Below are positions 2,626 to 59,395 of a stretch of DNA of 64,000 nucleotides, piece after piece. Where the stretch lies: assembly GCA_030704615.1 (NCBI GenBank), contig CM060734.1:34348001-34412000 (forward strand), read 5' to 3'. The stretch's first letter is position 1. Every line of letters starts with the position of its first letter. Made by a program: the position numbers and the translations under genes. The stretch comes from Takakia lepidozioides (Eukaryota; Plantae; Bryophyta). The notes beneath the pieces were generated by a model. It made no database searches. It had not been told where the DNA came from and saw only the letters and a list, made by a program, of their open reading frames with translations.

Positions 2626-2937
2626 GTTAGTGACAGGTAGACACGGGTTAACGTCAGAAAAGTGGCCGTCAAGTGAAAGAGAAGTTTGGAAGTCAAACTC
2701 GGAGAATGTGTCACGCGGACAGGGGCAATCGGAGGCATGTCTAAAAACGAACACGTGGCCACTAGGGCGAAGCACACCGCTGTGCATATATTGCAAAAGT
2801 GGGTATCATCATGCAAGAGGACAAATCAGGCCATCAAAGTACCTACCCGGTACATCAGCCAAAACTATTTGTGGGCCCATTAATGCATTCAGGGTAGGGG
2901 TAACGGAACCCTTTCCGAGTACAGAAAAGAGGGACTT

Positions 2938-5900: not shown

Positions 5901-6384
5901 TAGGACTCATGCTGCACTAGAGTACAGTCGGGCAATGATTACGCCCTTCAACCAAATTCCCATTGTGATGGATTTGGCTTGGAAGGAATTTAGTCCTCCG
6001 CAGTCGTTGGCACATTATTACCAGATCATGCGCATTTGGTTGCCAGTGGCAACTCGGACTAAGGTTCTTCCGAACAATCGACCCATTGAGGATCATCACT
6101 TTGCAAGGTACTGGTCTGAGGCAGGCACCATGCTGAAGGACTTAATTGCCTTCCAGGTTGTACATGGGTACATCTACACCAAGACCAAGGAGGTATCTTG
6201 TATTGTCATGGGCTCTGGATTATACTATGCTGCTTGTTTCATGGCACGTCATCACATTGTACTCAATCGCCTCCATCAGCCAGTGACAGGGCTCGGGCTC
6301 GCACACGGAGTCCTTCACGAGACTCTCACCGTCAGAAGGGTGCTCGCTCACAAAGGTTTGCTGATCCTAAACAGTAAACCGTGA
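2938..6384 (+). pseudogene. Large extra ORF downstream of pol: Athila-ORF-like N-terminus plus long coiled coil, broken by in-frame stops
   Basis: ORFs 2938-4194, 4345-5628 and 5635-6384 share one frame and are separated only by TAA/TAG codons. The motif QFLQNF...QVRGADIKITPQYLQQFFDLP resembles Athila/Tat accessory ORFs; E/L/Q-rich heptads follow. Confidence 0.65.
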
Positions 6385-9600: not shown

Positions 9601-10304
9601 AGGAGGGCGGCTGAGTATTGATGGGAAACTATCCAACTATTTCTGGCTCTCCAAAGCTACGACTGAAGCTCAAATTAAACAAACGCTTAAATTTCGCTAC
9701 GCCCAATACACAATAAGACTCCTCAATAGGAATACAGTTAATTCAAAGTTACAAAGTTTTCTTCTATTTCTGGCATGCAGCTCAAGCAACGAGCCTAGAC
9801 GGGCTGTGGCCCAGGAGTTCTTCTCATATCATTTAGAGTGTTGGGAAACAGGTTTGAAAAGGTGAGGCTCCAAGAACGTAAGAAAGGGAAGCATTGTGAT
9901 GAAGCTGGCATGATGACGTCTTGGGTGACCTTCGCCTGGAGGTACATGGGCAGATGGACATCACAACCAACACAAGATTGTGCTCGACCTTGGATCAGGG
10001 ATGTTAGCTCTACTTTCACAAAGGGAGGGTGTGACCCACTGTCAATCCCAAAGGTTCCCTTGAGCGCTTTTGTCTGAAGTCCCGTGTGCTTGGACTTACG
10101 TGTGGAAACCAAGCTTGGCCAATTGAGCGGCCAAACGTTGGACAAAAAGACAAGGCTCTAAACATCTCCCAAACAAATGAACCATTTTCAGACCCTGTTG
10201 GTATGTTTCAGGAACCCGTTGCTGATGGAGCGATCTTCTTAGATATGGTAGTGAATTTGACTGTAAAGGTTCGTAACTAATAAGAGTGTGGTTGAATCAG
10301 GCAC

Positions 10305-11145
10305 AGCCTCTGATTGGACGTGAAACTGGCTACCGGCGTCAAATGCGGGAGTGTAAAGGATGCACGACAAGTTTTCGACAAGATGGCCAAACGAGATGTG
10401 GTCTCAGGGAGTGCGATGTCTCATGGATGTGGCTGGAAAGCTTTCAAGCTGTATGAGCAAATGCACCATGAAGGACTGACTGCCAACAGTGCCACATTTG
10501 TTTCTATTCTCAATGCGCGTGCCAGCCTAAGGGCAGAGAGATTCATGCTGAATCGACAAAGCTTGAAATTGTGCCAGATATCATTCTGGATACGGCCCTT
10601 GCGGCCATGTATGCCAAATGCTGGAGCATGAAAGATGCACATCAAGGTTTTGACAATACGGTTAAAAGAAATGTGGTCTCCTGGAGTGTGATGATCGGAG
10701 GATGTGCCCAGAATGGGTGTTGTACAGAGGCCGTGCATCCATTTAAACACATGCAGCAGGAAGGCTCGAAACCAAATGGTGTCAAATTCCTCTCTCTTCT
10801 CTCTGCATGTAGCCATGTCGGCCTAGTGAATGAAGGCCTCCGGTGCTTCAATCTCATGAGTCGAGATCATGGCCTCACTCCTACTGTGGAGCATTATGGC
10901 TGTATGTTCGACCTTTGTTGGTCGTGCAGGTCGATTGGATGAGGAACAGGCTTGATAAACAAAATGGCAATCGAACCAGACGTTAGGTTGTGGAGGGCCT
11001 TGCTTGGCGCCTGTCAAATGTAGTATGGTGCTGTTGAGATAGCAGACGTGCTGCTAAACTCATCCTCGAGGGGGATCCACAGCATGTTGGAGCTTATGTG
11101 CTCCTTTCAAATTTCTATGCTGCAGCGGGTAGGTGGGAGGAAAAG
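10305..11145 (+). pseudogene. PLS-class PPR gene remnant with E domain
   Basis: Motifs KCGSVKDARQVFDKM, RNVVSWSVMIGG, FLSLLSACSHVGLVNEG, VEHYGCM, WRALLGAC and YVLLSNFYAAAGRW; frameshifted. Confidence 0.9.
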
Positions 11146-16752: not shown

Positions 16753-17105
16753 TGTCGTGCGCATACATATCGCTACACAACTACATCGCTATCCAAACCA
16801 CACCACACATAGATGCACAATAAAGTAGTCTGCCACAATCAGGCTCAAGTCGAGAGAGATGAGTTGCGCGACTGACGCTCTCGTGAAGATAAGATGGTTC
16901 AGGTGTCAAGCTCAAAATTGACACCTGACTTAACACTTGAACTAAATCCAAGTGTTAAATACAAATAACTAGTTTTATTCTAGTTAGTTTCACACTGTGT
17001 TTATTTAACTTGACAGCTGTCGTGCGCATACATATCGCTACACAACTACATCGTTGTCCAAACCACACCACACATAGATGCACAATAAAGTAGTCTGCCA
17101 CAATC
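16753..17105 (-). repeat. 3' terminal block of element 1: A (16753-16840), B (16840-17015), gc, A' (17018-17105)
   Basis: A and A' are 88-bp direct repeats with 2 differences; B matches 28221-28396; PPT-like aggggggc on the minus strand at 17106-17113. Confidence 0.95.
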
Positions 17106-17362
17106 GCCCCCCTAGCTGGTGGATAGGTCCCTCTAACTCCAGATAGCTACAAGATGTAATAGCCACAGCCGTACTAAGTTCTCTATCACTGGCCCTGTTG
17201 TACTCAAACTCTGTAGACCAAGAGGCCGGGTACAAGAGTAGCCCCATCGTTAGTCGCCGTCTTGCAATCTGTGAACTTGAGCCAGGATCTCGTGTGTTCA
17301 AGGTCTCCTAGTAGCTTGGCCTTGCATTTCTTGTTAGCCTCCCATGGTTGTATCCACTCCCT

Positions 17363-19342
17363 CTATCCAATGCATTGTGGACATAACCAATCCCCATCCG
17401 GAACCATCTCAAGAGGTGGAGTCAAGCATCCCATATGCCAACCTCTAGAGCATCGATCACACACCAGCATGGTGGCTGCCCCTTTAGCAGACCCACACAA
17501 CATGCACCTCAAACTTGCAGATACCACTGCCAGGTTTGGGTCAATCCTGCCATCGACATTCGGAAGGTGACATGGCGCACAATTACGCACATGGTCCTTC
17601 CAAGTTATGCCATCCCGACCCTCCAAGACCAAGATGCGTGAGGGCAAGACCTCTCGAACCCTCAAAATAACACGTCTTGCAGTCATATCCAAGGTCGTAG
17701 GAGCAGTCTGCTGTAGATAGACATAGTCACCAGGGTTGAATCTCCGAACCCCAGGACGATAGCCCCGACCACGTATGGTAGCATACCTCAACGTATCACG
17801 GTGTTGTGCAATGGCAAGGTTCTCGAAAGCCATGGGCATGACTTTCTTGAACAATTCTGCACGCTGCTCACATGCACGTGCCCACACGTCCGGATCGTCA
17901 AGGTTAAGAACTGTAGCAGCTTCTCTGCGAATGGATGTAGGCAAATCCGGCTCTCGGCCAAAGAGAAGAAAGTATGGTGAGAAGGAGGCAAGTGATGTTT
18001 GCTTGCTGAACCTGTAGCCCATGGCTAACCAGGGTAACTGAAGGTCCCAATCTCCTAGGTGTCCCTTCTGCAAGCCATACTTGCGCAAACCCCTCTTTAC
18101 TATCTGAACAACTCTCTCTGCCAAGCCATCGGCCTCAGGATGATCCCGAGAAGTGGTGCGGTGGTTTATCAAGGCCTTGTCACACAAAGCCTGAAACTCC
18201 CCCAAGAACTCTCTCCCTTGGTCCGTGAGTACCTCAGCTGGAGCACCGAATCGGCTAAGCACACAATCCAAGAATGCATACGCAGCTCCCTCACTAGCCT
18301 TATATGGAACCAATTCAATCCACTTGGAGAAGTGCTCCACCATCACCAATACGTACTTGTTGTGACGCATGGTCAGTGGCAATGGCCCTGCGAAGTCAAG
18401 ACTCCACCTGTAGCCCAATCCCATGATCGGAAGAGGGTGCAATTGTGGAGTAGGGGCGTTGAATGAAGCACGCACCCTGTCACACACCATGCACCTAGCC
18501 ACAAATTGTTGCACCTCTATGTGCATACCACGCCACCAATACTGCCCCTGCAGTAGACTATGAGTGCGTCGTACCCCAAAATGCCCCAACTCCTCATGGG
18601 CATGCCGCACTAACCGTGCCCGCTGTGTTGGGTGAGGCACAATCCTCACTCGACCATCCTCCCACACTCGGAGCAGGTGTGTCCCCTCCCACTTGAACCT
18701 CTTGGCTCGTTGTAGGATCCGATCCCTCTCCTTGGCAGTCACAGTGGCTGCAGTGCCTCCAGTGCGGAGGTAGTCCAACACAATTGAATCCTCATGTATA
18801 TCTTTGGCGCCACCTTGCTCATTGCTGGCCTCAGGGTCCTCAGACACTTGATCTATAGTCATCCCTGTTGCAGGTCCAACCTGGCCTCCCGCTGCCAAGA
18901 TACACAGGAATGCAGATGCATGCCATCCGGGCACCATCTCCTCGTCCGTCTCACCATGCCACCGAGCTCCAGTGTCATCCTGCTGGCTCGTGCATGGATT
19001 GCGACTCAACCTATCTGCATTGCGATTGACCAAACCCGGTCGATGCACAACCTGAAAGTCATATTCTTGAAGGATGAGTGCCCACCGTGCAAGCTTCCCC
19101 GTAAGCTTGTCTGACTCCATCAACCACTTGAGTGGTTGGTGATCCGTGACAAGGGTGAAGAGATTGCCGTATAGATAGCACCTGAAGTGTGCCACGGCCC
19201 ACACTGCAGCTAAGCATTCTCCCTCATATGAACTATACTTAGACTCTGCAACGTTGTTCGAACGGCTAGCATAAGCCACTACGAACTCTCTTCCCTCATC
19301 ATCCATTGTGTGAGCACCGCTCCAAGCCCCAGCATGCTCCAA
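17363..19342 (-). CDS. Pol C-terminus of element 1: RNaseH end, integrase (HHCC, DDE) and C-terminal PHD finger
   Basis: HEELGHFG...CMVC, LDFAGP, LTDQGREF, DGLAERVV, and CMLCG...LVCDRCSRGWHMGCLTPPL...WLCPQC (C4HC3). Confidence 0.95.
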   Translation of the reverse strand: MEHAGAWSGAHTMDDEGREFVVAYASRSNNVAESKYSSYEGECLAAVWAVAHFRCYLYGNLFTLVTDHQPLKWLMESDKLTGKLARWALILQEYDFQVVHRPGLVNRNADRLSRNPCTSQQDDTGARWHGETDEEMVPGWHASAFLCILAAGGQVGPATGMTIDQVSEDPEASNEQGGAKDIHEDSIVLDYLRTGGTAATVTAKERDRILQRAKRFKWEGTHLLRVWEDGRVRIVPHPTQRARLVRHAHEELGHFGVRRTHSLLQGQYWWRGMHIEVQQFVARCMVCDRVRASFNAPTPQLHPLPIMGLGYRWSLDFAGPLPLTMRHNKYVLVMVEHFSKWIELVPYKASEGAAYAFLDCVLSRFGAPAEVLTDQGREFLGEFQALCDKALINHRTTSRDHPEADGLAERVVQIVKRGLRKYGLQKGHLGDWDLQLPWLAMGYRFSKQTSLASFSPYFLLFGREPDLPTSIRREAATVLNLDDPDVWARACEQRAELFKKVMPMAFENLAIAQHRDTLRYATIRGRGYRPGVRRFNPGDYVYLQQTAPTTLDMTARRVILRVREVLPSRILVLEGRDGITWKDHVRNCAPCHLPNVDGRIDPNLAVVSASLRCMLCGSAKGAATMLVCDRCSRGWHMGCLTPPLEMVPDGDWLCPQCIG

Positions 19343-20340
19343 TCTGTATGCAGCTGAAAAGAACGCCCCCTAATAGGCCGTCTCAAGATGGGCGCCGAGG
19401 TCAACCTCGCCTTGAGCTCTTGAAAAGCTTGTTCTTGCTCATCTTCCCACTGACACTCCTGGTCCACCTTGGTCAGCTTGGTTAGAGCCTTTGCAATGGC
19501 ACTAAATCCCTTAACAAACCGTCTATAATAGTTTGCTAACCCCATGAAAGCTCGAACTCGGCTCACATCCATGGGGCGTGGAACCTGTGCAATGGACTCT
19601 ACCTTAGTCTGCTGTACCCCCAATCCTCCAGGATATATCATGTGACCCAGATACTCAATCTGGTTGTGGAAAAACTTGCACTTTCCCGGATGTAACTTCA
19701 ATCCGTGCGCCCTCAAGCGCTCAAATACCCCCTGAAGGTGTCTCTCATGCTCCTCCACCGTAGCACTAAAGATGATGATGTCATCTATGTAGCACCGAGC
19801 AAACTCCACCCCTGCTAGAATCCTGTCCATGACTCTTTGAAACTCAGCAGGAGCGTTTTTAAGCCCAAATGGTAAGAACCGCCACTGGTATAGGCAATCC
19901 TTCCCGTGCTCATTGATCCCCCAGAATGCCGTCTTTTGCTTATCCGCCTCCTTGATCGGCAACTGGTGATATCCGGATCGTAAATCCAACGTGCTAAAGA
20001 CCTTGGCATGCCCAATGGCATCAAAGATCTCCTCTGGTGTTGGCATGGTGATTACAGTCCGGTAATCACCGCACATACGTCTCTCCGTCCAATTGCCAAA
20101 GACATCCTTCTTGGCTGGCATCACTGTGGCTGAAGCATACTCTCCCCCAGATAGCTCCACCAAACCAGCCTCCCAAAGGTCTTGAGTTCTCATCTGAATC
20201 AAGAACCTCTCCATGTCACTGTATCTATAGGGTCTCCAAAAGATTGGCATGTCAGTAGCCAATTCAATGCGAATCTCTTGACCCTTCAGTGCTCCTAAGT
20301 CCTTCAAACTGAAGGCAAAGTAGTTCCTGTAAGCCCTCAA
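19279..20340 (-). CDS. Reverse transcriptase and RNaseH start, element 1
   Basis: RMCGDYR, LDLRSGYHQ, PFGLKNAPAEFQ, YIDDIIIF, YLGH, LHTDWS. Confidence 0.97.
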   Translation of the reverse strand: MRAYRNYFAFSLKDLGALKGQEIRIELATDMPIFWRPYRYSDMERFLIQMRTQDLWEAGLVELSGGEYASATVMPAKKDVFGNWTERRMCGDYRTVITMPTPEEIFDAIGHAKVFSTLDLRSGYHQLPIKEADKQKTAFWGINEHGKDCLYQWRFLPFGLKNAPAEFQRVMDRILAGVEFARCYIDDIIIFSATVEEHERHLQGVFERLRAHGLKLHPGKCKFFHNQIEYLGHMIYPGGLGVQQTKVESIAQVPRPMDVSRVRAFMGLANYYRRFVKGFSAIAKALTKLTKVDQECQWEDEQEQAFQELKARLTSAPILRRPIRGRSFQLHTDWSMLGLGAVLTQWMMREESS

Positions 20341-20769
20341 GAACCGCCGTATACGTCGTCTCTCTCCTCCCGTGACTATAGGTCCAACATCAGGCTCCCA
20401 GTTGTCCTCCGTGACTGCAACCTTGAGTCCAGCAGGCTTAGAGGTAGAAGACGCGTCCCGTGGTTGCTATGCTGCAACCTCTTGAGCAGTGACCACTGCC
20501 TCCTCTGTCCGTGACAATGTCTCACCCTGCCCCATCATCCCATCCTTGAGGACCTCCTCAACCCGAGACAAATCCCCAACCTGATCCATCACCGCCGCCT
20601 TGGCTGCCAACTCTTTATGAACCTCGAGCACCTCCCACGTGTGCCATGGATGCGGCCTGCACCTCGTGGTCCCCACCTGCTCGCCCCCACTCGCTGCCTG
20701 TACCGTCTCGGTAGGCAGGGAGACCATGAAGGGAAGTGTACTTCGCACTCTGCGCTGCTCAGCCATAGC

Positions 20770-21720
20770 CAAGCTGATGATCCAGGTCAAGCAATTGAGA
20801 TCCATTGCTTGCCCCAACACCTGACGACGTGATGCCTCAGAAAGAGAGGGCACCGCCGTGGTACCAGTGGTAAAACCCATCGCCCGCTCGCGCTCGTCAG
20901 CATTGGGCTCCACTAATTGTTGCAACTGGCTATCCCACAAGAGGCCAGGTCCACCATCCCGAAAAGCATGGGATCCTGGGAAGCTGAGCAGTGTAGGTAA
21001 TGCTGCTCGTGGTTGACCCACCCTGTTGACCACTGCCAAAGGCGAACGGTCATCGTGTCTCACACGTTGAGACTGCCTCCCTGTGTCCAAAATGCTATCC
21101 ACTGTGAGGTGTGCTGGCCACTGCACCCCATCAAATGCACGCTTGAGCAGTGCGGGTGGCATCAAGTTAGTCCACCATAGTCGTGGACGATGAGCCCGTG
21201 ACCCCACTGCAGCTGCATCCAGCAACAGTGCTGACCCAAGCCACGACCGGACTTGATGCACACTGGCCATCACCCTGGCCCGAGAATCACCCATCAATGG
21301 CACATTCTCCAAGATGTATGCTGGAGATACAGCTTGATGAAGCTGCAAGTGACGCAAAACCCGCACCATCTCCCAAAACAGACCCGTCCTTGAGTCTCGC
21401 AATCCATTGCCATACCCGGCTGATGAATGCCCTTGGCAGGGCCAACCTGCCACTACCAGATCAATGGAGCAACCTGCTCCAAATCCTGCGCCCCCTAGCA
21501 ACAAAATGTCTGCTGCAAGGCTTGTTGGTATCCACGAACTACAGACACTGGCAACAAATCAGGGTACTGATGTACCAACTGAGCAACATGGCGTCGTGAG
21601 ACGCGTCGTGTCTCATCCTTCTCCACATACAGGTAACGTCGAACTCGTACACCTGTCTGCAGCACTGCAGCCAATCCAGTGCTGATCCTGCCAAACAAGT
21701 CCAGAAGGCATATGCCTTCA
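20770..21720 (-). CDS. DNMT3-like C5 cytosine methyltransferase domain inside pol of element 1 (frameshift near 21500)
   Basis: Motif I LLDLFGRISTG; motif IV IDLVVAGWPCQG; motif VI YILENV; motif VIII DAAAVGSRAHRPRLWWTN; motifs IX/X ERERAMGF...SRRQVLGQAMD. Confidence 0.92.
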
Positions 21721-22099
21721 TCCGGGCACTGCCACACAAGAGGTGTGGTGTCCAATGGCGACAACTGAGGTGGTCCTGGTGCAATCACCGCACTCTCCTC
21801 TTCTCCTGACGGTACGAAGGCCTCTACCCAGGCTTGTTGCACCCGTCCATCAGCAGCCTGCTGCAAATCCTTACTCGTACCCCACAATGGAGTGTGAGCA
21901 ACCATGGCGGGCAACTCCGCCGTACCATGCATGTCATCCTGCTCTGCGGGAGGTGGCACATCCTCTGCATGGGCATTGCCCTCCAGCAACTCTCCAGGCC
22001 AACTAACTGCAGCTGTAAAGGCAGCTAGTGTTGGCATCTTGCCCCGCTGGGCAGCCGCAATACCTCCAATGAATGTCACAGGGAGCTGTACACAACGAC

Positions 22100-22520
22100 C
22101 CTCCCCTGACAGCCATCCAGGCCTATAGGAAGCTGACTCCTCCCAAAAATCCAGGGTGAAGCCCATGGGGTACAACACTGCCCCACCAACCAGGACATCG
22201 TACGAGACCGCGTCTATCACAATGGCCTTGGCTCGCATCACTGAGCCATCTGTAGGGTGATCCGGCTGTAGTACAATGGCCAACTCACGCCGTGTCATGC
22301 CCCGAGCCTACTCTGATCCTGCCAGAGATGTCTGTATCTGGAAAGGACAAGGCTCCATATCCGCCTCCATGAGGCCCAAACCTGCAATAGCAGCTCTGCC
22401 CAACATCAGTGGCTGAGCTCCCGAGTCCAACAAGACCCGCAGTGGCCGGTACTTCTTGCCTGCCGGTCCACTCAAAGTGAAAATGCCATCCTGGTTGTCT
22501 AACAAGACAACTCCAGGTGT
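22100..22520 (-). CDS. Aspartic protease, element 1
   Basis: VLLDSGAQPLMLG active site followed by YDVLVGG. Confidence 0.88.
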
Positions 22521-23058
22521 TACCATGGCGCGCTCAAAGGCTGGCCTAGCTGGCAGCTCCGTCAACCTGGCAGCTGCAGCTTGCCATGGCGCAACCATGG
22601 CAGTCTTGACCCTCAAATCCGAGGATCCCTCTCCCACTACACCTTCCACTAACTCCGCAGAAGATGAAGTGACCTCCCCACTCTTACATAGTGTTGCTGC
22701 TAGTCTGAACACTACAGCTGGTCTTACCCCGGCGTCGCAATCATGGTTGCCAAGAACAGTGGGGCTTGACACACAGAGGTGGCTGCCCCCAACAACACAC
22801 CGGCTGCACTAGCCTGGGTAGCAGGTGTCAGTGCTGTCACGTGTAGCTCTCCCCAATGGCATAGTAACCTCCGCCTCGGTAACATCGGGCGAGAACTAGG
22901 TGCCATGGATGGCGTCGACACAGTCTCCACCAATGTGAATGACTGAGGAGCCTCGCCTGACGGCTTGCCTCCCCATGCTGTGGATCCAATTCCACCTCTG
23001 CACCTCGTGGCTAAGGAACTCGTGCTACTCCTCGAGTCACGGCTGCAACAGACTCCAC

Positions 23059-24545
23059 CTACACTAGTGGTAGTGCTGCTCCGCACATGAATCCCATGCC
23101 TCCCATATCTCCTCCCTTAGGCGCAGGAGGTAGACCATCCCGCCTGGGAGCCGGTACCGCCTGAGCTGTAGCCATGGCAGCGAGCCTCTGCTCTAGCTGC
23201 TGAAGCCGGTTGGCCATGCCTTGGTCAACACCCTGACCTCCGCGTCCTTGGCCATGTTGAGCTTGCCCTTGGCCTGCACCTCGTGCCCGGCCACCTCGTC
23301 CTCTCTGGGCTGGTCCACCTCGCCCCCGGCCACCATTTTTCCCTTGGAACTGGCCTGGGCGCAACTCAGGATGCAAGTCATAACACTGGGCATCTCCATG
23401 CCCATACTTGCCACAATGCCCACACTGCAACTGTGCAGGCTGTGCTTGTGCCGGCCTTTTGCCACTCTCTGGGCAATCTCTCTTGACATGGGGTCCTCCA
23501 CATGTCCACATATCACCCCTGGTTGTTGTTGGCTTGCAAAAGATGCACGGCCTCTGCACCTGAGGTCCCCTATAAGCTCCATGGAACTTGGGTTGGGAAA
23601 CCTTGCCCCCCTGACCACGCTGTTGGGCAGTCCCTTGTGCCTGTGGGCTGGCAGCTGTGCCTCGTACAGGCATGTCCTTGCCAAATCAATGGTAACAACT
23701 CGCTCCTCCACCATGTTGAGCTCAATCCGCTCAGCCAACAGAAACACATCTGTTGATGTGGGTTGGGCCGCTTGTAATAGGGTTGCATCCCGCACCCTTC
23801 TCCTGAGCTCCTTGTCCAAAATTCCATACCAGAATTGGATTGCCTGAGCTTTAGTAACCCCTTGGGTCACACTTATCAAGCGCCTCATACGAGTGTAGGC
23901 CTCTCGCAGGCCGGGTTGAATCTAGGCACATGTGTTGTAGTCGTGGCAGGAGGAGTAGTAACACCTTTTGAACTGGTACCACCTGCAGAAGTACCGGCAC
24001 TACTTGTTCCACTACTAGTGCTGGCAGTGGGAGATATTGGTGCTGATGCAGCTACTGGTCGCGCCGTGCCTCGAGTAATAGAGACGTAGTCAAGTGACCA
24101 ATACATCCTCCACTCCTCAATCTCTGCTTCATGTCCTCGCCTGAACTCGTGGTAATCGTCCATAGGCGGGCTTTCCAAATTCTGGAACAGTCCCTTCCAC
24201 GCCATGAATAGGGTGAATAGCTGTGGATTACGCATCTGCTGCAAATCACACCAGCTGTCGAACTCCTGGATAAAGTCATCCAACTCGATTGTGCTTACAG
24301 CTCCAGAGTACCTACGAGGCCCCTTGGTAGCTCCATACATCTCCTCCATGTCGTCCCACACAATGGCGAATGAAACTGCACACCTGTTGATGAAGCCTCC
24401 GAGTCTGTGTCTGACTCTGCACTAGTGGAGGTGTGAGGTGAAGGTGGTCTGAAATGAACACCCTCGTCTGGTGAACCCACTCTCACTGCTACTGCCTGTA
24501 GCCGTACTCCCCTCAGAACCCCTGGGTAACTCCGTGATGACACTC
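23059..24545 (-). pseudogene. Gag of element 1 with two zinc knuckles; internal deletion near 23910
   Basis: LDDFIQEFDSWCD, YTRMRRL, WTCGGPHVKRDC, CGHCGKYGHGDAQC. Lacks the VVEFF...SESLRE segment present in the other two copies. Confidence 0.9.
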
Positions 24546-25176
24546 ACAATGTGCACCTCCCCCACGTGACACTATAAGGCTCTAGTACTAATTCTAATAG
24601 TGACACGGGTGGGCACCTGTTGCAGTTTAAGGGTCATATCCCAATGGCTCAGGGCACCTGCACTTGCATCCACCGCAAGAACTCCTATGGTTGGCTGGTC
24701 ATCAACCCAGTCTCACCATAGAAGAAACACTGGTGGTCTTGCTGGTCATCATCCAGCCTGGCATACTCTAGGATTGACCGGTGATCCAATCCGGCCTAAT
24801 CCCTATGAAAGCAAGCGCCCACACAAAACCAACATGGCGTACAGTCAAGCATGCAGGTGTTGGGGGGGATCCAAACACAAGAAATCAAACATCAACACCA
24901 ACCCCCACACCAAAATCCATCTGCAATGCGATCCTGCAGAATATCCCAGCCCAAACCCCGGACTGACTGGCCTCCACCAAAGAGGCTTTGGCAACTACAA
25001 GTACAAGGTAATGAAAATAGTATAGAGATGGAGGGGAAGAATAGAAGCCCGACCCAACAAGATCAACTGCCAGACTTCTCTCAAAGTGCCTCGCTCTGCA
25101 TGATGGTAAGGTGTAGGAGGTATATCTATGTCCAGAAACCTGCCACTAACCTTGTCCCAAGCTACAGTAGCTCGCT

Positions 25177-25701
25177 CTAACCAACCCTCCTCCTATTTCT
25201 GCCAGGTAGAGACAAAGCAATACTCCCTATCTCCCGCTCACTGAACACTAAAGAAAACAAAGGTAGGGTCTGATAGTCTCTCAACTCGAAAGCTTTGAGA
25301 CGATTGCGGGTATCCTCATTGCGGATGACTGCATCCCCTTCAAGCAAAACAAATTTGTCATTGCTAATGAACCCCCCCGCTCGTGATTGCCTTGTGCAGA
25401 GCGTGTCCGGCTGCAACCATGTCTGATTGCACAAACTTGTGTAGCTCATGCTCCTCTGCTCCAGTACACCACGGCCTTGTGGCTGACACCTTGGTACCCG
25501 GGGCTGTCTTTGGCTGTGTTCCAGCCTAGCTTTCACCCACTTTGGTATTTCACTTACAGCTGCAGAACTATTGGCTCCAACAGAGTTCTGACTGTCCAAA
25601 GCAACATTGAGGCCCTCAACGCCAACTACAGCAGTTTGTTGTCTACTGCTAATGCCTGACTCCCAGTATGCAATCAACTCGTCCAACTGTTCTCCACTCA
25701 A
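25177..25701 (-). CDS. Possible small ORF upstream of gag, function unknown
   Basis: 174-codon frame; homologous but disrupted sequence at ~45850-46370 in element 3. Confidence 0.3.
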   Translation of the reverse strand: MSGEQLDELIAYWESGISSRQQTAVVGVEGLNVALDSQNSVGANSSAAVSEIPKWVKARLEHSQRQPRVPRCQPQGRGVLEQRSMSYTSLCNQTWLQPDTLCTRQSRAGGFISNDKFVLLEGDAVIRNEDTRNRLKAFELRDYQTLPLFSLVFSEREIGSIALSLPGRNRRRVG

Positions 25702-26354
25702 ATCAGTCTGAGTTCTTGGGAGACATAAATCATGTCCCCTTGTTGCACAGGCTACGAGAAGAGAACCTGCCCTTCAATTACGTCCTCATTTCCCCCAGCC
25801 ATACAAGGAGTACATCCCCGATTTATCTCTCATGTAGACCAGAACAGTTCTAGAAACATGATTGTGGATCTTTCATGGCACACTCACTCCTCTAAAATTC
25901 CATAGATTTTAGTAGAGTCCCAAAAACAAAAACCAGGTCTAGATAGGTAGATATCCCATTTCTGCAGCTATCCCCTGAAAGACTGAGTCAAACGGAGCTC
26001 ATTTGACAAAGATATGACCAACCAGGCTCTTTAAACATAACACCTTTTTTCTTTCTTCCCCCCCCCCCCCCCCCCCCCCCCCCCCTTTTTTTTTAAATAA
26101 GACAGAACAAATACAAAGAATTTTTATTTTTATTTTTTAATACTTGTCTTGGTTCCCTGTTCCCAGGTTATCTACGGGTTCCCGAGGCCGTTCCCCTCGC
26201 ACTGTGAGCACACTACTGCCCCATTTCCAGTGCAGTTTGAGCATAGAATGCTGTTGGCTTTACTTGGAGGCGTGGACTGTGATGCCTGGACGCACACACT
26301 GCGGAGGACCACCATCACCGCATTTCCGAGCGCACTCCACAGCAGCAGTCTTCC

Positions 26355-26389
<35 letters not shown>

Positions 26390-26679
26390 ATGGCGGGACT
26401 TACAACAATAGCACAGGGCATCACAGCGTCCTTGGCATCAGCGGCATGGCGTGGGTGCCCTCAGATGCAGCTCACAGTAAGGGGCGATCTCGCATGGAGC
26501 AACCTCCTCTGTTGCACCAACTGTGCGCCGCCGAGAAGTGCTTCATCTGGTGGGAGCGACCTCAGGGTATGCAGCAGCTACTGCTAGCACCTGTGGTGGA
26601 GAGCGGGGTTGGCGCGCTCCACTACGCAGTGAATGCCTGGAAGTCTAGTACACCACAACACTCTCTCTCTCAACCTGCC

Positions 26680-26885
26680 CTTAGAAAGAAAACCATTCAA
26701 AGTGATCCCTCCCACTGCATTTGTCTCCGCAGCGTTTTTATAAATTAGATCCTCCCATGGGCTGCCACAAAATTGCAACAATCCATGTGTCTCTCTTTCA
26801 TTGTCAGAACCACCAGAACTGCATGATTGGAGGCGGCTATTGAGAAAAGCTCCTCCAGCTCCTGAGAACGCAGTGCACCATCCCC
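26680..26885 (-). pseudogene. MIRO: Captured fragment of a mitochondrial Rho GTPase (MIRO) gene
   Basis: GDGALRSQELEELFS and SPWEDLIYKNAAETNAVGGITLNGFLSK match the second EF-hand region of plant MIRO; the spacer between them ends in a splice-acceptor-like ttttgtggcag. Confidence 0.75.
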
Positions 26886-28220
26886 TCTTTGAGAATCTTG
26901 GACTGCAGACTGATGTGCAGGGCCCTTCTTCAGATGTGCAAGCTTTTTCATTGACAGCCCCTGTGGAAGTCGACCCACAAAGCTTGATGCAAAGACAGCC
27001 CACCGAATCTTGATTTCCTTTTCGAAACCCACTGTATGGTGCGGATGCCTTGCTTCATTCTTCGAATCTATGTACCTCTTCTTCCTCTTCTTCCAGCACT
27101 TGCAGAATTTCACATAAGGCACTTTTGTGCTCCCTTTGGTGTTGAAATCCTTTTGGAATGTTGAAGTATCGGTGGAATATCGGTGCCAACGTATGGCCCG
27201 TACACAGTTCAGATTTCGTGTCAAAGACTGCTTCCAACACCTCCCTCAAGGTGAGACCAACCCTGCCCTGAAACGCGAGGACAGCCTCAGCTTCGTCTAA
27301 TATGAAGTAGACTTTTGACATGTAAAAAGGAGAATCAACACCCTCCTCCAGCCGTGCCTACTGCAATGTAATCACAATGTAGTCACAGACACCAGCATTC
27401 TCTCCTTCGCCACGCATTTTCGCATAGTTCACCATCGGCTGGGGAGTTGAGCCAACATTGGAGGATTCATAGTTGGGAGGCATCCGCTTTCTTTGCCGCC
27501 ATGATCTTATATGCTTGTCTTTTCCCTAGCTCCTACTCGTAGCCGATGTCGAGAAGGCAATGTCAGGTTCTGCTACGTGCTCACGATAGCCGAATCTCTG
27601 ATCGTCATAAACAGATTGCTTTGCTCGGCCCTCAGTCCGTTAGTTGCGTAGGATATCACACTGCGAAGTCATCAACGTAATTCCTGCCCATCATCTGGTA
27701 GCAAACTACTTCTCCCGCAGGCCTTGCCTTGTACAATCGTAATCATGAATGCCAATGACAGCACAGTGTCTATAGCCGCACCCTAGCAAGCTGTTTTCCC
27801 CCGTGAGTTCATAAGTTGCTAAGTGGTGATCACAAGTAGAGCGGCAGCTCCGCCTCTCCTCATAGGCTCAAATCATCAAAAAACAAACAGATGGCATCGT
27901 CTCGCCCCACCTGCACTTGCACACCCTTCCAAGCATTGCTCACCTTCTTTCAACAAATCGTTTCTCTCACTTTTAAAACAAAAACCACAAGTGCTAAAAC
28001 TAAACTCACCTCTGGCATTCACAGATGCAAGCCTCATCTCTCTCGAGTGATAAGAAAGAACTAAACTCCAATAACAAGATAAACACAAACCAACACCATC
28101 ACTCTTTAAAATAGAAGTCGAGCCAGGGGCACCCCAAGCTATGGGGACTCCACCCCATAACAACCTATCCTCCCATCATAAACACACTCAGTTCTAAACG
28201 CATACAGGAGCTCGGTCGCG

Positions 28221-28396
28221 CAGGCTCAACTCGAGAGAGATGAGCTGCGCGACTGACGCTCTCGTGAAGATAAGATGGTTCAGGTGTCAAGCTCAAACTT
28301 GATACCTGACTTAACACTTGAACTAAATCGAAGTGTTAAATACAAATAACTAGTTTTATTCTAGTTAGTTTCACACTGTGTTTATTTAACTTGACA
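28221..28396 (-). repeat. 5' terminal repeat B of element 1, with no adjacent A copy
   Basis: 176 bp; I count 5 differences from 16840-17015. Confidence 0.95.
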
Positions 28397-29682: not shown

Positions 29683-31191
29683 CTAGAGGGGGGACCTAGT
29701 GTTCACAATAGATCTGGAGATGTCATTTTCTAGCTCCATTGGGTCATTTGGTCTGCGGTGTTTTTTGGCAGTTGGTGCTGCTGGTGACGAAGGAATCCCA
29801 TTTAGGGACCAGCATGGGCTATCACCGTAGATACTAGATGTAGTTTGTTTCAAAGCAGCTGCCTGATCCTGACTAGGCATTATCTGAGTTGAGGGTACTT
29901 TCTCTTTAGAAGAGGCATTCCCCATAGGTGCTTGCATAGTCTGAGTTGAGGGTACTTTCTCCTTAGAAGAGGCATTCCCCAAAGGCGCTTTGGACCCATT
30001 GGTGCAAATGCCGTCTGCTGGTGTAATTTGATTCCTGTGAGAGGTTGCAATCAGCGGAGCAGAGGTTGCCAGAAGTGAAGTAGAGGCCAATTGGATTGGG
30101 GAATTGCGTTTTCTCTTTCCAATAGGACAGTCTGCTTTCATATGACCCTGCTTTCCACAGTTGAAACAACCTGTACCAGGCGAGTCTTCCATTAGTTTGA
30201 CTAAGAAGAAGTTTCCCTTGTTGTCTATGGGCAGCCTGATGTAGTTTGGGATTTTGCCCTCATTGGGCATCATAATCACAATTTTGGGCAAACCATTCTC
30301 CTTCATTTTGGAAGCAATTGTGACTCCTTTCCATGCCTGTTCTTTTCTCAAGTTGTCCAAGCACATCTCAGGGTCAAACACAACCAGACAACCCAGGTAG
30401 TAACCAAAGGAATTCCCAATGTTAGGGAGGAAATATAGGTATTGGTCTGGGATCCCACAGACAGTAACAATCCTTGGGGCCCAAATTTTCCCATTCATGT
30501 TTCCCATCTGAGGAGACCATGGAAAAATGTTAACATTGAACCCCAGCTTGTGGGGGTTGAACGCCAGGGTATGATCTGCTGCTGCTTTGGTTTCGAACAT
30601 TATGGAAAAAAACCCACGTCCTTTTGGATGACAAAAGTGTTGCTGCAGATCGCCCGATCCTCCAAGGTGTGAGGTCACCCAGTCCCTAACATCGGTTCTA
30701 TTTTGCTTCTTCCCGGGAAAATGCAGGAGAATACCTCGTTCTTGGCATCCAGAGACCTTGTCACAAAGGGAATCCAAATCAATGGCTATTGAGAGCGCCG
30801 CTTCTTCCATTTCAGCCTGCGATTCTTCAATATCGCCGTCCACAGACAGTGCTTCCTCTGGCTCGTTGGGCATACTGGAGGCAGTGTGAGGTGGGGGGAC
30901 TGATCGGTCAGCTGAAGACGCTGCTGCAGTGGCCAAGGCATTGACGTTGTCGTTGTAAATTGGACCTGAAGACGCCGCTCCAATGGCTAAGGCACGGACA
31001 TTGTCCATTCGACCTATTGCTTGAGCTTGGTAGGCTAGGAAGAAGGCATCACCCGATTGCCTCAAATGCCTAGCAGGTGGGGGCGCTTGCATGATCGAGC
31101 GATTGATTCTGCTTCTGGGGTTGATGCGCACACCCTTGAACTGAAAATTAGGACCCATCTTCGACTGATAAAGTGAGGTTCGCTCAATCAA
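29683..31191 (-). CDS. Plant L1-type LINE ORF1 (DUF4283-like region and CCHC zinc knuckle); no ORF2 recognised; A-rich tail at ~28697-28728
   Basis: GRGFFSIMFETKAAADHTL...IFPWSP, VCGIPDQY...IGNSFG, CFNCGKQGHMKADC. Confidence 0.85.
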   Translation of the reverse strand: MIERTSLYQSKMGPNFQFKGVRINPRSRINRSIMQAPPPARHLRQSGDAFFLAYQAQAIGRMDNVRALAIGAASSGPIYNDNVNALATAAASSADRSVPPPHTASSMPNEPEEALSVDGDIEESQAEMEEAALSIAIDLDSLCDKVSGCQERGILLHFPGKKQNRTDVRDWVTSHLGGSGDLQQHFCHPKGRGFFSIMFETKAAADHTLAFNPHKLGFNVNIFPWSPQMGNMNGKIWAPRIVTVCGIPDQYLYFLPNIGNSFGYYLGCLVVFDPEMCLDNLRKEQAWKGVTIASKMKENGLPKIVIMMPNEGKIPNYIRLPIDNKGNFFLVKLMEDSPGTGCFNCGKQGHMKADCPIGKRKRNSPIQLASTSLLATSAPLIATSHRNQITPADGICTNGSKAPLGNASSKEKVPSTQTMQAPMGNASSKEKVPSTQIMPSQDQAAALKQTTSSIYGDSPCWSLNGIPSSPAAPTAKKHRRPNDPMELENDISRSIVNTRSPL

Positions 31192-32199
31192 TAGAGGGAG
31201 TTGTGGCTTGCCGAGAGTCTAGAACACGATCTGGAGAGAGGCTTGGGGAGATACACACTTGGTATAGGCAAAAGGTGGTGGAAGGATGAGAGTAGTGAAA
31301 GGCGGTTGACTGTCTCATCGGCCTTTAATGAAGGATAACTACAGTCAGGCCAAAATATCGGCACTGTGAGAATGGGGGCGCATTGAAGCGAAGGAGTTTC
31401 TCGAAAAGAGCATCAGGATGAAGGTAGATGGATACATGTTTGTATTTAGATAGGCTTGATGAAAATTGACACTAGTCCAGATTAACGTTTTTATTACTAC
31501 GGGTGATATAAACCTTGGTAACCATGACTATATATGTGACTACAGAGTGACGAAACCCATTGTTGGACGAAATTTAATATATTTTAATCTAATGACGTCA
31601 TACATATTACTACATGACTAGGAGCCGCGGTCAAACATTGTTGACCAAGAACAGAGGCTTGGTTTATATAACTAGTAGTCATATGCACTACTACACGTCA
31701 ACAAGTGCTACATAAGCTTATGACTAAATGACTACACCATTACTACACATTGATGACATGCCATAGAAGCTTATGACTACATGACTACATGAGGTTTCAC
31801 AACTCTGTTTATATGACTACATCACTACACGTGGCATCTTAAGGCATATACATGAATGGATTCATCCATTGGATGACCTCATCCATCTATCTTTAATGAG
31901 GCACTTGTGTCATTGGAATGACACAAAGTGCAAAAAGTTAAAAAGTTCAAAAATTTGATTTAAGGTTGCCCACGTTCAGCCGTGAACAGAGGGTTGGGAC
32001 TTAGCCTCCTTTTGTCTCATGTGCTACGATCTGTTTTGTTTTCTTAGTATCGAGCCGAAGCAGTGAGAACTTGTGTCATGGAATGCCATGATCGCATGAT
32101 ATGCAATACAGGGGCGTGGGATAGAGGCTTTGAGACCTATTCTTGAGCAAATGATGCAGGAATGGCGAGGATATGCACATCAGGGGCGTGGTATAGAGG

Positions 32200-32818
32200 T
32201 GTCAAGTTATTTTACCACTAGTGTGAAACTAGCTAGGAAATAGCTAGTTTTTACATATTGACATTTGGGATTGGCCCAAGTGTCAATCCAGGGGTCAAGG
32301 CAAATTTAGGCCCTGGAGTGGTTATCTTCACGGCAAGCACGGGAGGCTCATCTTTCTCGAGTTGAGCCTCACCGCGCCTAGCTATGGCGCCGTAGTGTGG
32401 ATTCCCCATGGCGTGGGGTGCACTTGGCTTTACTTGTATTTGAGTGATGAGGTTATATATGCATGAGTTTATGCTTCAGATTTGTGAGCTCGTGCTTGTA
32501 TTCTTCTTCTTTATCACTCGAGAAAGATCAGCTCGTATCTGTGAGTGCCAGATACGAGTTAGTTGTAGCACTTGTGGTTTTTGCTTGAGAATGAGAGAAA
32601 CCAGGTTGTTATGCAAGGAGCATCGTGGAGCTCTTGGTTGTTAGAAGCGAAGGCGATGTGGGTTACGAGGTGGTAGACCTTGGCATTCGATCTTCAGCTT
32701 CAGAGATGAAAGCACCATGCTGCATTGCACTTTGTGGAGTATGTTGAGATTGGGTTTCAATCTCGAGCTTCAGCATTGAGAGGGCTCTTGTCATGGCAAG
32801 AGCAGGGCTGGAACATGA
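32200..32818 (+). mobile_element. 5' end (B repeat and leader) of a third, diverged subfamily of the split-repeat Gypsy
   Basis: Starts tgtcaagtta; colinear similarity to the element 1 5' end (gtgtgaaacta, ttatcttcacg, gctcatct..agttgagcc, tccccat..tggggtgc). Confidence 0.75.
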
Positions 32819-33559
32819 TGTCAAGTTAACTAAACACGGTGTGAAACTAACTAGAATAAAGCTAGTTAGTTGTATTTAACACTTGGATTTAGTTCAAGTG
32901 TTAAGTCAGGTGTCAAGTTTAGCTTGACACCTGAACCATCTTATCTTCACGAGAGCATCAGTCGTGCGGCTCATCTCTCTCAAGTTGAACCTGCACGACC
33001 GAGCTCCTTCTCTGCTTAGAATCTGAGTGTGCTTATGAAGGGAGAATAAGATGTTGTGGGGTGGAGTCCCCATAGCTTGGGGTGCCCCTGGCTCGACTCT
33101 TAGTTTTAATGAGTGATTGTGTTGTATTGAGTGTTTCTGTGTCAACAGTGTGAATCTAGTTTCAATCACTCGAGAGAGATCATCTATCTAGTTTTCTAGT
33201 GCTAAGCTAGATATGATGTTTTTGTTTTTAAGCACTATTAGAATATAGCTTGGTCACAGGGAGCATGCAGTTAGACTGGCTATGTGTGCCGAGTGGAGCA
33301 AAACAAGAAGGCGGAAACCATTTGAAGGAGGTTAGCTATTTCATGAGCATGAGCGGCATGAGCGGAGTAGTAAGACAATCGGTTTTCATGAGCAGAAGTA
33401 CAAATTTCGAAAATAAAAAACAATAAAAAAACAATAATTTAATGCAATGTGTCAGGAAAAACAAATATATTATTCGGCCCCTTGAAGGGAAAATTGTAGT
33501 TTTGACAGTTGTGCTCATGATATTTCGTCTTCCGCTCATGCCAATTCCCAGCGACATGT

Positions 33560-34153: not shown

Positions 34154-37100
34154 TCAATGATTTCTGGAATCCCTAAGGAGGAGTTTGTGCAGCTCGTTCA
34201 CGCTCAACGCCGGTGCATGAATAAAGTAATCAATAGTCACGTTCATCCTCAACCTCTTCAGGTAAATGTAATACAGATGCTTGCACGGATAATACTTCGA
34301 ACCCTTCTTTGCTTCCATCAACGAGAAGTCCGTACAATTGCAAGTCGGCTCCACTCCAATCGTAATTGTGTATACATCGTCGCGTACAGCCGAGCCGGCC
34401 GTTGCCATCCGATACACACGCCCAAGGCCGGGTGGGGGTACGTCCACGGAGCTCTGAATAGTGCAAGCCATCCCAAGAGCATTGACAATCCGAGTCTCAT
34501 TCAACTTGTTGGGAGGGTGTCGTCTCTTCACTCTTCCGAATCGCATTGTGGGATGTGCAGAATTGTCCAATCCGTCTCTACTGGACCGAGCAGTCTGCAA
34601 TGGCTGGGTCTGAGGAACCGGAAATGCGTGGGCCGGGATGTCTGTGTGTTGCACCATTCGAAATCCTGCTGCAGATAGAGTGTCCGCCTCATTTTGAGAG
34701 AGGCTGCAACCCGGTGCAACAGGCCAGACGCCCGGAGGCTCCGGCATTCCCTGAATCCCGTACTTGGGCTTGCCAAATACACAGGTCATTATGTCGTGCC
34801 TACAGAACCAAAATGTCTGCGTTGTGGCGTGAGCAAATGTGGGAGTCAAAAATCTGTCGCTAAAATAAGGTGCAGGTACAGCACCGTGTGGGTTCCTCCG
34901 AATCATCTCACCACAGCGTGCTCTCGTATCCACCCGGATGGCGCAGCACTTCCCTCGAAATGCCGGCAATGTCCTCGCAATTCTCCACTGTGACTCCGAC
35001 ACTCTTGTCTCCACAATGGGAATGTTGTACTGCTTTACTACAGATGGCTCGTTATGTTGCCGGGGCACACGCCCTGTGCTCAAAGGAGATGACGATCTTG
35101 AACGTGCAGGACTTGCGGTGCTTGACGAGACCTCCTCGGGCAACATCACCGGACCACGAGGGAGCGTGCGAATATTCTTGTCAGCTCACCATGAATCCTC
35201 TTCTCCGCCAGGTGCCTCGTCAAGTCTTCGTCTCACTGGACGGGTATGAACATCTCCTTCCAAATGTTGGCCTCTTCGCAACAATGGCGTGTCCCGAAGG
35301 CCCTCTCGCAAGGCCGCTGCCCACTTCCGAGGATTCTTCGATCTAGAGGCAGTCCGCATCAGCATTTCTTGCCTGTCCGGCCCCAAGCCCCACTGTTTCC
35401 CTTTCAAGAACTCGTTATACCTGCATTGTTGCATAATTGACCTCACAATGTCCTCCGTTGTGGCAGTGAGGATGTCCACCAGATGCGCCATAGAGGAGGC
35501 ATGCCAGGAAGAGTGCACTGATTCGGCCATGTTTGTCATGGGCATGTCGGTGTCGGAGTCGAGACACATTTCCTGCACAAGCACATGTTGAGGTTACAAG
35601 CAAGTTACAAATATGGCTAAGAATAATATTCAACGGGACGCGAATTCGTGCAACTCACCTCCCGCATATAGTCGCCGAACTGGAGGAAACGATAATGCCA
35701 CCATGCTAGCCAACTGACCATTGCTCCCTCGTCTGATTTCCTTACAGCACCTGACGATGTCCACCAAGCCCGTATACATGCAAACTGTGTCTCTGCATCA
35801 TCCAAGGTGGGAGCGCGCTTCCACGCAAGGCACATGGAACGGTGCTCCTCTCTGAAATCTGGCGCCACGAGCCTGGTTGTGTACTGCGAAAGGCTCTGCG
35901 GAAAATGGAACCCACAAGATCTCTCCTTGCCTTCCATGGGAACATGGGGTCTTGCCCGTATACCCTTTGGATGGCAGCCCAATTTGGTTGTGCGTTGTCC
36001 GCCATGAAACCACGGAAATTGGGAGGGGGCAATCCCGCCTTGGCCATCTGTTCGTTTATTCCCTGCCAAAGAAGCATCTCCGATTGTGTGTCCTCTCCTT
36101 TCATCTCACAAATAGCAATTGTCATTAGCATCCTGCAGTGGGTGTCGTAGACATGTGCACCCATTGTCACCCACTGGTGATTTGTAATTCGCTTGATATG
36201 GTCGAACATGACCCAACTGTTTGACAAGTCCCCACTCGTCATCCTGTCGACCAGTTTGACGCCGCTGCCAGGTCCACTCGTGGACATTTTGAATACGAAA
36301 CAACGATCTGCCTCAGTCCCTTGTCCTGGAAACCTACTTCCATGAATGTAGTCATATCCACATCGTCGCTTCACCTCCAGAATGGAGTGCATATCCGAGC
36401 CACGCCCAATTTTCTGTTTGCATGAGACAATGTGGTTTCGGACATTCGGTGAACATACGTGGGACACCGACTCCAGCAATGCCTCCATTTCCTTCTCGTC
36501 GAGAGGAACTCTATCGGAGCCGTCTTCCGACATAATTATGGCCAATGCCATCTTATGGACGGCTTGGAGCTGTATCTGTTTGGGTTTGGCACCCGGTCTC
36601 AACTTAACCTCCTCCTGAACGAGCTGCTCTGCTTCGTGGGCAGCCTCCCGCGAGTTCCCCCTCGCCAATTTGTGACAATGGGAACCAACGTGTATGCAAG
36701 CTCGGGTGAGGTCAGGGAAATGGTGCAACACATAGAACTGCTTGGCATTACAAACAGACATGCAGTGTGGTGGTTCTTTGCAATGCGCACACTTAAATGT
36801 GGAGTTCGGAACCTTCTCCTGAGCTCGAAATGGTTGATGAGCTGTGCCTGTCCAATCGGTCTCGTTCCTGTGACCTCTGGATTTAAAGTGGAAGCAAGTT
36901 GGGGAGAAACACCGCAACGCGCCCGCACAAACAACGTAGCGTACCCGCACACCATCGAGCATCTTCATGCTGGTGGTTTTGGTAACGCACCAAGGATGAC
37001 CGTCATGTTTTCTATCCATATCTGTCAACATTCCGGACGCCCTCGAGTAGTCCGCCCGAGGAGGGAACTCAAAGAAGATATTACCGTCGACGTCGGCGGG

Positions 37101-37760
37101 AAGGCATGTAACCGATTTAATTGCGAACTTGCTGTAGTCCAGCCCGGCCAGCTCCGACCGGTGTCCCTCCAGGTGAAGCCCTCGCAGAATTTCAAGAATA
37201 GATCGAACTGCGGTGCTCGTGCTGGGAATATGACTCCCTCCTCCACTGACGTCCATTGAGGACTTGCCTGATCTCCAGGACAACCTCGGAACTTCCATGA
37301 CCTCGTCTGAGTCGGAGAGGTTGTGAACAACCCGGTTCTCGCTCATCTCCATGGATGGGTTCGGCTCTGGATTTACTTCGTTGCGGACTTCTCTCTTTGA
37401 GGTAGCCACTCTCTGATTCGCGGATTGTTTCGTGGAAGGCGCCAGGATAGAAGGTGCATTTGGCGGGCAAATGAAGTCCCCAACAGCCCTGTATATGACG
37501 CTGTCCGATGGTGGAACTCGCCATTCCCTGCCATCGCCGAAATCATCGTGGAGCACAACAATACTCTCGACAACAAGGCCGTTTGAGTCCTTCCTTTCCT
37601 CTTCCAAAAAAACCGACCCCGGTTTCAGGTGGTATTGAACGCACAGATATTTCTCCATCACCCGGCAGATGTTCCCTCTGCACGGAAATGAAGCTCTATG
37701 CTCGTGAGGAGGGCAATACACTGTAGCGCTCGGGTTTTCCGCCATGGGAGATGTGCACAC
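34154..37760 (-). CDS. MULE transposase: GCM/WRKY-fold-like N-terminal zinc domain, catalytic core, SWIM finger (intron near 35590-35658, frameshift near 35945)
   Basis: WCVTKTT..YVVCAGALRC..CAHC..C..CIHVGSHCH; VMFDHIKR; GFMADNAQ; SCGFHF (CxxH); YTITIGVEPTCNCTDF..PCKHLYYIY. Confidence 0.85.
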
Positions 37761-38049
37761 AAGACTGCCAGGATGGCGTGCGGGGAAGCTCCCTGGTAGA
37801 AGGGGGATGCAGCGATGGGAAGGAATGCGGTGCCGATTTGTCCGAGCGACGAAGCCTGATCCAAATCCAGGGAGCCAACTATCTCAAAAATCCACAGTCA
37901 CAGTGTTAATGAACCTTGTCTCCGGAATGCGGCCCCTGGTCTTTGCGCAATAACTGCCAACGGTATGCAGTCAGAAAGTGGGGGGCCGTCCGGATGATGT
38001 CGGCTGAAGGGGAGAAGCCGGCACCGTGCCGTCACATTACTACCCCCGA

Positions 38050-59380: not shown

Positions 59381-59395
59381 TGAGTCAGGTGGTTG

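Follow-up and report, generated by a model that had tools for sequence, protein, structure and literature searches.

Retrotransposons that carry a cytosine methyltransferase have been described in dinoflagellates and in the charophyte Klebsormidium by de Mendoza et al. 2018 (PMC5890265); the original prediction for the present locus had cited this paper to the same effect, and the accessible portion of the paper says so. According to that portion, KnitGypsy-Dnmt3 of Klebsormidium nitens has the Gypsy domain set, a DDE integrase, a non-permuted DNMT3-like domain, DIRS-like repeats in the order A-coding-B-A-B and a Ka/Ks under 0.2, and all of these properties are shared by the two elements described here. 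In KnitGypsy-Dnmt3 the methyltransferase domain and the reverse transcriptase (RT) lie in one ORF, whereas here they are in the same frame with a conserved stop between them, and a single open ORF with RT and RNase H is found only in other relatives such as P0173. Land-plant copies, target duplications or readthrough are not reported for KnitGypsy-Dnmt3 in the accessible portion of PMC5890265. Judged from their sequence, the present elements would work like KnitGypsy-Dnmt3, but they are not filed as members of it because the single-ORF feature is absent and common ancestry is putative. SymbioDIRS-Dnmt3 of Symbiodinium, as described in the same portion, also has a DNMT3-like domain, A-coding-B-A-B repeats and two coexisting domain orders, and its domain methylates CG de novo. 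It has a tyrosine recombinase, whereas the present elements have a DDE integrase with a PHD finger, TG/CA ends and 4-bp target duplications.

The window, that is the whole 64-kb stretch of DNA that was analysed, contains two minus-strand Ty3/Gypsy-type elements with the order gag-protease-C5 methyltransferase-RT-RNase H-integrase-PHD, as found by translation and Pfam. Downstream of the methyltransferase both elements match the Pfam families RVT_1, RT_RNaseH, Integrase_H2C2, rve and PHD. Element 1 is a whole insertion (16753-28396, minus strand, as are all of its parts given below unless stated otherwise) with TG...CA termini and a CCCC target-site duplication at 28400-28397 and 16752-16749. 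It is composed of repeat A1 (28221-28396) at the 5' end, a leader, the ORFs, a polypurine tract, B1, two bases, A2 and B2. ORF1 (20467-24421, start approximate) encodes Gag, an aspartic protease and the C5 methyltransferase and carries several frameshifts and stops. The protease active-site DSG was read in translation at 22419-22427, and the counterpart protease in the relative L056 matches Pfam Asp_protease_2 with an E of 2e-4, below cut-off. ORF2 (17363-20466) encodes, by Pfam, RT (20025-19636, with YIDD near 19791), RNase H (with a frame change near 19300), an H2C2 zinc domain, the DDE integrase core (18412-18137) and the PHD finger (17506-17372). The polypurine tract (17104-17113), which relatives also carry, immediately precedes B1 (17018-17105). 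B1 ends in CA, and together with the GC that comes next and the TG that opens A2 this makes up a palindromic B/A junction; repeat comparison places A2 at 16841-17015 and B2 at 16753-16840. Between A1 and A2 there are 5 mismatches in 175 bases, which suggests that the insertion is moderately old. The leader holds a copy-specific insert (26180-27830, no strand assigned) that is outside the family and where contig depth drops from about 3e5 to about 6e2. It includes part of a BSD2-like gene of the host (about 26255-26184, PF25436 E 2e-7), and a GA repeat and a run of C are also present. Loose contig ends suggest that the insert is made of pieces of several host transcripts, as by template switching.

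Element 2 (54118-62300, minus strand) represents a second subfamily with the same domain order; its B1 and B2 are at 54658-54574 and 54202-54118, and no 5' repeat was found for it within the 64-kb window. A third copy (45651-48243, plus strand) is truncated, retaining only leader and gag, and shares 92-94% identity with element 1 along most of its extent. The plus strand also bears two isolated 5' ends of A type (32819-33180 and 32200-32600), which belong to related subfamilies.

It had been predicted that the motifs of a C5 methyltransferase occur in canonical order between protease and RT, and this was confirmed. In element 1 the domain lies at about 21731-20750 (PF00145 E 8.9e-12), and motif positions read by hand from the translations are about 21701-21675 for motif I, 21441-21436 for the catalytic PC of motif IV, 21309-21301 for the ENV of motif VI, 21192-21181 for motif VIII, 20895-20872 for motif IX and 20817-20794 for motif X. 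The same domain in element 2 was found where it had been placed, at 59395-58400 on the minus strand, with an E of 4e-11 and two internal stops. Both scores exceed Pfam's curated cut-off, and in both copies motifs I-X are linear and non-permuted, unlike those of DRM. When the domain was compared with solved structures, DNMT3A came out on top (E 5e-13), with DRM2 near 1e-3 and M.HhaI near 3e-3; a profile of 22 sequences gave 9e-20 for DNMT3A, 6e-9 for DRM and 1e-5 for HhaI. An AlphaFold model of the element 2 domain, with X at its stops, reached a pLDDT of 94.8 and superposed on DNMT3A with a Z of 29.1 and an rmsd of 2.5 A over 272 residues, DNMT3A and 3B matching end to end. The same model gave a Z of 24.6 with a bacterial CpG methylase and 23.6 with M.HhaI. 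DNMT3A spans model residues 3-327 and DRM only 5-133. Identity with DRM was rejected on the grounds of the linear motifs, the partial alignment and the weaker profile E, in agreement with the original prediction. The closest solved relatives are DNMT3A/B/C, and by its sequence and modelled fold the domain is a non-permuted, DNMT3-like C5 methyltransferase. The same linear motif order and fold are seen in animal DNMT3A/B, to which structural alignment gives 24-26% identity, and in DNMT3a/b of Physcomitrium (Yaari et al. 2019, PMC6453930, in its accessible part). The host plant DNMT3 carries DUF3444 according to that part, whereas the element domain is without DUF3444, PWWP and ADD and, unlike host and animal DNMT3, is intronless and fused to Gag-protease.

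The claim that the peptide is conserved while the DNA has diverged also held, as the two window domains are 75% identical as protein with a pS of 0.70 and a pN of 0.17. The dN/dS of the domain between them is about 0.10 (pN/pS 0.24, interval 0.20-0.29), a rough value because synonymous sites are near saturation; the protease and RT of the same copies gave 0.14 and 0.06. Comparison of L056 with L065 and L057 gave 0.13-0.14 for the domain, the value for the unsaturated pair L056/L057 being 0.14. Overall the protease ranges over 0.10-0.14 and RT over 0.05-0.06, so that the domain is close to the protease and above RT. The methyltransferase domain has been under purifying selection, and neutral evolution, which had been named as a possible refutation, was not borne out. 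Young decayed copies of the moss-like group have dN/dS values of 0.28-0.76, alike in all domains, and are for that reason uninformative on selection. Both window copies are disrupted, as had been stated: element 1 shifts frame near 21470-21500 and its motif I glycine is replaced by arginine; element 2 has TGA stops at 58684 and 58621, and the glycine that precedes its motif IV is likewise replaced by arginine. The search for intact copies that had been proposed yielded L056, with unbroken ORFs of 1369 and 1047 aa, and five full-length ORF1 models from Marchantia.

The explanation that we favour on balance is that of a decayed Ty3/Gypsy-type element whose Gag-frame DNMT3-like enzyme, placed before a leaky stop, would be loaded in the particle and would methylate new cDNA. 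It builds on the domain order, the fold, the selection on the domain, the stop with its context, the A...B-A-B repeats, the TG/CA ends, the 4-bp duplications and the DDE integrase. Ribosomes would make Gag-protease-methyltransferase, and a readthrough minority would give the full polyprotein with RT, RNase H, integrase and PHD. In the particle, where it would be present in Gag-level amounts alongside the RNA, the enzyme would methylate the cDNA during its synthesis by RT, before integration. The internal B/A junction would template the missing ends, and the integrase, perhaps steered by the PHD finger (a role given in the accessible part of PMC6673714), would insert the cDNA. The pre-methylated insert would resemble host heterochromatin from the start, and host enzymes would maintain the methylation.

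The element's own cDNA is rather likely to be the main substrate. It could be argued instead that the active enzyme works in the nucleus in trans. The abundant Gag-frame protein, freed by the protease, would then methylate genomic copies, elements that compete with it or defence genes of the host, and not the cDNA in the particle. Gag-level amounts would presumably exceed the need of one cDNA, the family is very abundant in the host DNA run (84,431 contigs matched, a count that gives no copy number), and de Mendoza et al. bring up both self-limitation and an influence on the methylome of the host (PMC5890265, accessible portion). However, no chromatin-targeting domain is attached to the enzyme in ORF1 by Pfam in L056, and all layouts found have the domain joined to Gag or Pol, which fits packaging, so that action in trans seems rather unlikely.

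In intact copies the enzyme is probably active; all SAM-binding and catalytic motifs are present in intact relatives. The related dinoflagellate domains methylated CG de novo, and the Klebsormidium domain expressed in yeast gave no methylation in a test that its authors call inconclusive (PMC5890265, accessible portion). The yeast result could also mean that the domain has been kept to bind nucleic acid or to modify the element RNA and not to methylate DNA. Two further observations are consistent with such a role. In 72 of 150 distant relatives (the best 150 of 481 clusters) motif IV has Glu-Cys instead of Pro-Cys, altering the residue before the catalytic cysteine. In addition, no footprint of self-methylation by extra CpG loss was found, CpG observed/expected being 0.41-0.54 in the elements against 0.55 in the window and 0.29-0.83 in other ORFs. 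It is nevertheless unlikely that the domain serves in this way, because the motifs are retained in intact copies and DNMT3 is the nearer fold, the tRNA enzyme DNMT2 reaching a profile E of only 4e-4 and a Z of 22.9.

The methyltransferase had been placed within pol, and this part of the original prediction has to be corrected. In element 1 an in-frame TAG at 20469-20467, about 116 codons past motif X, separates ORF1 from ORF2 and is followed by CAA CCA (predicted leaky stop, 20461-20469, minus strand; consensus UAG CAR YYA). Element 2 has TAG CAA CCA in the same place (58049-58057, TAG at 58057-58055). The conserved stop between methyltransferase and RT puts the enzyme at the end of the Gag-protease frame and not in Pol. 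Stops were surveyed in 82 sequences, i.e. the best 80 of 113 metagenome loci and the two window copies, and an anchor at the RT start was present in 62 of these. A stop lies 14-26 codons ahead of the anchor in 58 of the 62 (43 TAG, 15 TAA), and the four without it look frameshifted. CARYY follows the stop in 55 of the 58 and the full CARYYA in 9, and the three without CARYY have a second stop directly behind. The 58 rows are not independent, since one family dominates and some duplicates are included in the count. The largest, moss-like group has CAA CCC (43/58), one base off the consensus, with an ATG right after it. UAG CAR YYA together with in-frame ORFs is found in both window copies and in L008, L056, L057, L059, L060, L065 and L076; the two ORFs of L056 share one frame and are joined by TAG CAG TTA, and L065, which the RT-start anchor missed, has TAG CAA TCA. 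The stop context is kept across five groups that are only 44-68% identical in the domain, with synonymous sites near saturation, and the second codon after the stop varies among Pro, Leu and Ser with YY kept. The weight of the conservation rests on these five diverged groups and not on the row count, and the TAG of the window copies is a family-wide feature, not damage. Among 915 host contigs no variant of at least 1% was found at 20461-20471, although this is weak alone because only 28 of 181 positions vary. Many database protein sequences, those of Marchantia included, terminate at the stop position.

CAR YYA is the readthrough consensus of tobacco mosaic virus (TMV), which gives 6-10% readthrough in stable Arabidopsis lines (PMC2754532, accessible part), and in-frame stops between structural and enzymatic ORFs are likewise known in MuLV gag-pol, SIRE1 and Tca2 (PMC2194720, accessible part). 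The six-base context is the same as in TMV, the readthrough in the present elements being predicted from sequence, and the stop here differs from all four in lying after the protease and an enzyme cargo. The stop is very probably read through in a minority of translations. It could instead be a true end, with the cDNA methylated all the same and ORF2 expressed through re-initiation, splicing or an internal promoter. The ATG of the moss-like group, two codons past the stop, and an early ATG after the stop in L065 would suit this. Simple readthrough did not carry translation past the similar-looking stop of Candida Tca2 in baker's yeast (PMC2194720, accessible part), and no conserved RNA structure was found 3' of the stop in four folds (z -0.4 to -2.8). 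On the other hand, the first ATG of ORF2 is at or inside RT in the window copies and L056 (residues 73, 85 and 117, the last in L056), a CAR YY context would be useless without readthrough, and an RT not joined to Gag would have to reach the particle by some other route. A true end is decidedly unlikely on these grounds, and readthrough is retained as the reading. Some relatives have no stop and a single ORF, namely P0173, P0350 and Closterium P0468, in which the methyltransferase is followed by RT; Gag-level amounts of enzyme are thus not essential.

The A...B-A-B split repeats with TG/CA ends are complete also in L028, L064 and L074, and the B/A junction is kept out to L056 and L065. A 4-bp target duplication was found in all eight two-ended relatives (5 exact, 3 with one mismatch). 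None of 19 5' ends is permuted so as to carry a B end ahead of the 5' A repeat, which speaks against a circle that has two equal B/A junctions and is cut at random. PAT, Ngaro and VIPER elements have the same A1 5' end and B1-A2-B2 3' end (PMC6681497, accessible part); here, in contrast, a DDE integrase and target duplications are present and no tyrosine recombinase was found (0 Pfam families in 12 leader frames). Membership in the tyrosine recombinase order DIRS was rejected because of the rve integrase, the 4-bp duplications and the lack of a recombinase. Troyka was rejected as well, since its termini are CG...CG with 3-bp duplications (PMC12440569, accessible part) and those here are TG...CA with 4 bp. 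No primer-binding site was recognised. B1 differs from B2 by two substitutions that are the same in both subfamilies (17105-16753 and 54658-54118), though not in the moss-like family, so B2 would not be wholly recopied from B1 in each cycle. Single-B ends were observed in L014, L016, L018, L022, L031, L040, L052 and L067, with target duplications kept where both ends are present, and these copies likely arose by B1 x B2 recombination. In PAT/Ngaro elements the internal junction has reportedly been proposed as the template that restores the ends. By analogy it is reasonably likely that the B/A junction templates both ends during reverse transcription and that the integrase then inserts a fixed-ended molecule.

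It had been suggested that the lineage persists in a land plant with several subfamilies, and this finds support in named records and in the two subfamilies of the window. Homologues of the domain number 207 near domain length and 48 longer. Named among those listed (120 of the 207 and the 48 longer) are Marchantia polymorpha, Marchantia paleacea, Calypogeia fissa, Riccia sorocarpa, Sphagnum species and the chlorophyte Monoraphidium, the annotated relatives in Marchantia, Calypogeia and Sphagnum being 55-71% identical. With the named liverwort and Sphagnum relatives, the kind known from Klebsormidium reaches land plants. A Marchantia cluster has 18 members, and 5 of the 15 listed are Gag-protease-methyltransferase models of 1278-1281 aa; motifs I, IV, VI and VIII are intact in all five, and one model is 70% identical to element 1. 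A tree of retroelement domains only groups element 2 with liverworts. In a quick integrase tree (two short rows dropped) the window copies fall with Riccia, Calypogeia and one moss-like protein (SH-aLRT 98), and two named K. nitens integrases, from DNMT-bearing copies or not, lie outside the 20-row clade that holds the window copies. The host of the window is probably a land plant and likely a seed-free one, as inferred from decayed PPR remnants, the BSD2-like fragment and the tree. The PPR remnants (49900-51100, 10300-10940 and near 32070) are of the long-short repeat type, which is typical of land plants. That the window is algal DNA, leaving no land-plant finding, is highly improbable: a Coleochaete transcript has an ORF2 69% identical to that of element 2, but the integrase grouping and the PPR remnants at three places argue against it, and land-plant presence stands anyway on the named Marchantia, Calypogeia, Riccia and Sphagnum records.

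Distant relatives form 481 clusters at 50% identity (E up to 1e-30). Among the best 150 of these the methyltransferase lies after RT/RNase H or before the integrase in 86 and before RT in 15, and 49 have the domain only, so that a second layout (RNase H - methyltransferase - integrase) is commoner there than the pre-RT layout. Examples are P0160-P0166 and P0172; many have the Glu-Cys motif IV, and the sole named source is the chlorophyte Monoraphidium neglectum. P0527, an ORF2 of the family, is filed under an uncultured cyanobacterium and probably stems from a plant or alga whose DNA entered a metagenome bin. More tentatively, the elements might belong to an ancient, green-plant-wide clade of PHD-bearing Ty3 elements with a single DNMT3 capture that moved between two positions. 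In its land-plant branch the enzyme would sit on Gag at a leaky stop, load the particles and give pre-methylated copies, DIRS-like split repeats would be combined with a DDE integrase, and near-intact copies would survive in Marchantia. This wider picture is possible, though we hold it with less than even confidence. In the literature covered, mainly non-subscription journals and the main text of the 2018 paper, neither a land-plant occurrence of such elements nor the conserved stop was reported, and the accessible parts of PMC12344493, PMC8566409, PMC10952607 and PMC6890710 add no such report.

Several other features of the window should be mentioned. A 713 aa ORF without Pfam match (35742-37883, minus) adjoins one of 343 aa that shows a weak SWIM finger (34154-35185, minus), and the pair is possibly a Mutator-like or unnamed transposon. 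The intervals 2884-6384 and 40231-41676 on the plus strand and 29683-31218 and 908-1555 on the minus strand hold further long ORFs that fit no clear family, an ORF with a zinc knuckle that resembles a LINE ORF1, and a DUF659 transposase fragment. CHG observed/expected in the window is about 1.0 against 0.54-0.67 in moss-like relatives, a weak hint of little CHG methylation in the host.

The present analysis adds to the first reading of the locus a putatively leaky stop, split repeats with TG/CA ends, 4-bp duplications and a DDE integrase, full-length models in Marchantia and a second layout. The question why retrotransposons keep an enzyme that silences them dates from 2018, and the lack of genetics in the known hosts has helped it to persist. 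With full-length ORF1 models in Marchantia polymorpha, for which mutants and methylomes exist, the question becomes testable. The conserved stop predicts that the enzyme is made at Gag level and is in the particle, and it offers a clean switch for testing. The split repeats together with the DDE integrase represent an unstudied replication route, and the elements would probably escape programs that seek paired LTRs. Where a high-copy family brings a de novo methyltransferase of its own, it could add to plant methylomes and inflate the counts of host DNMT genes.
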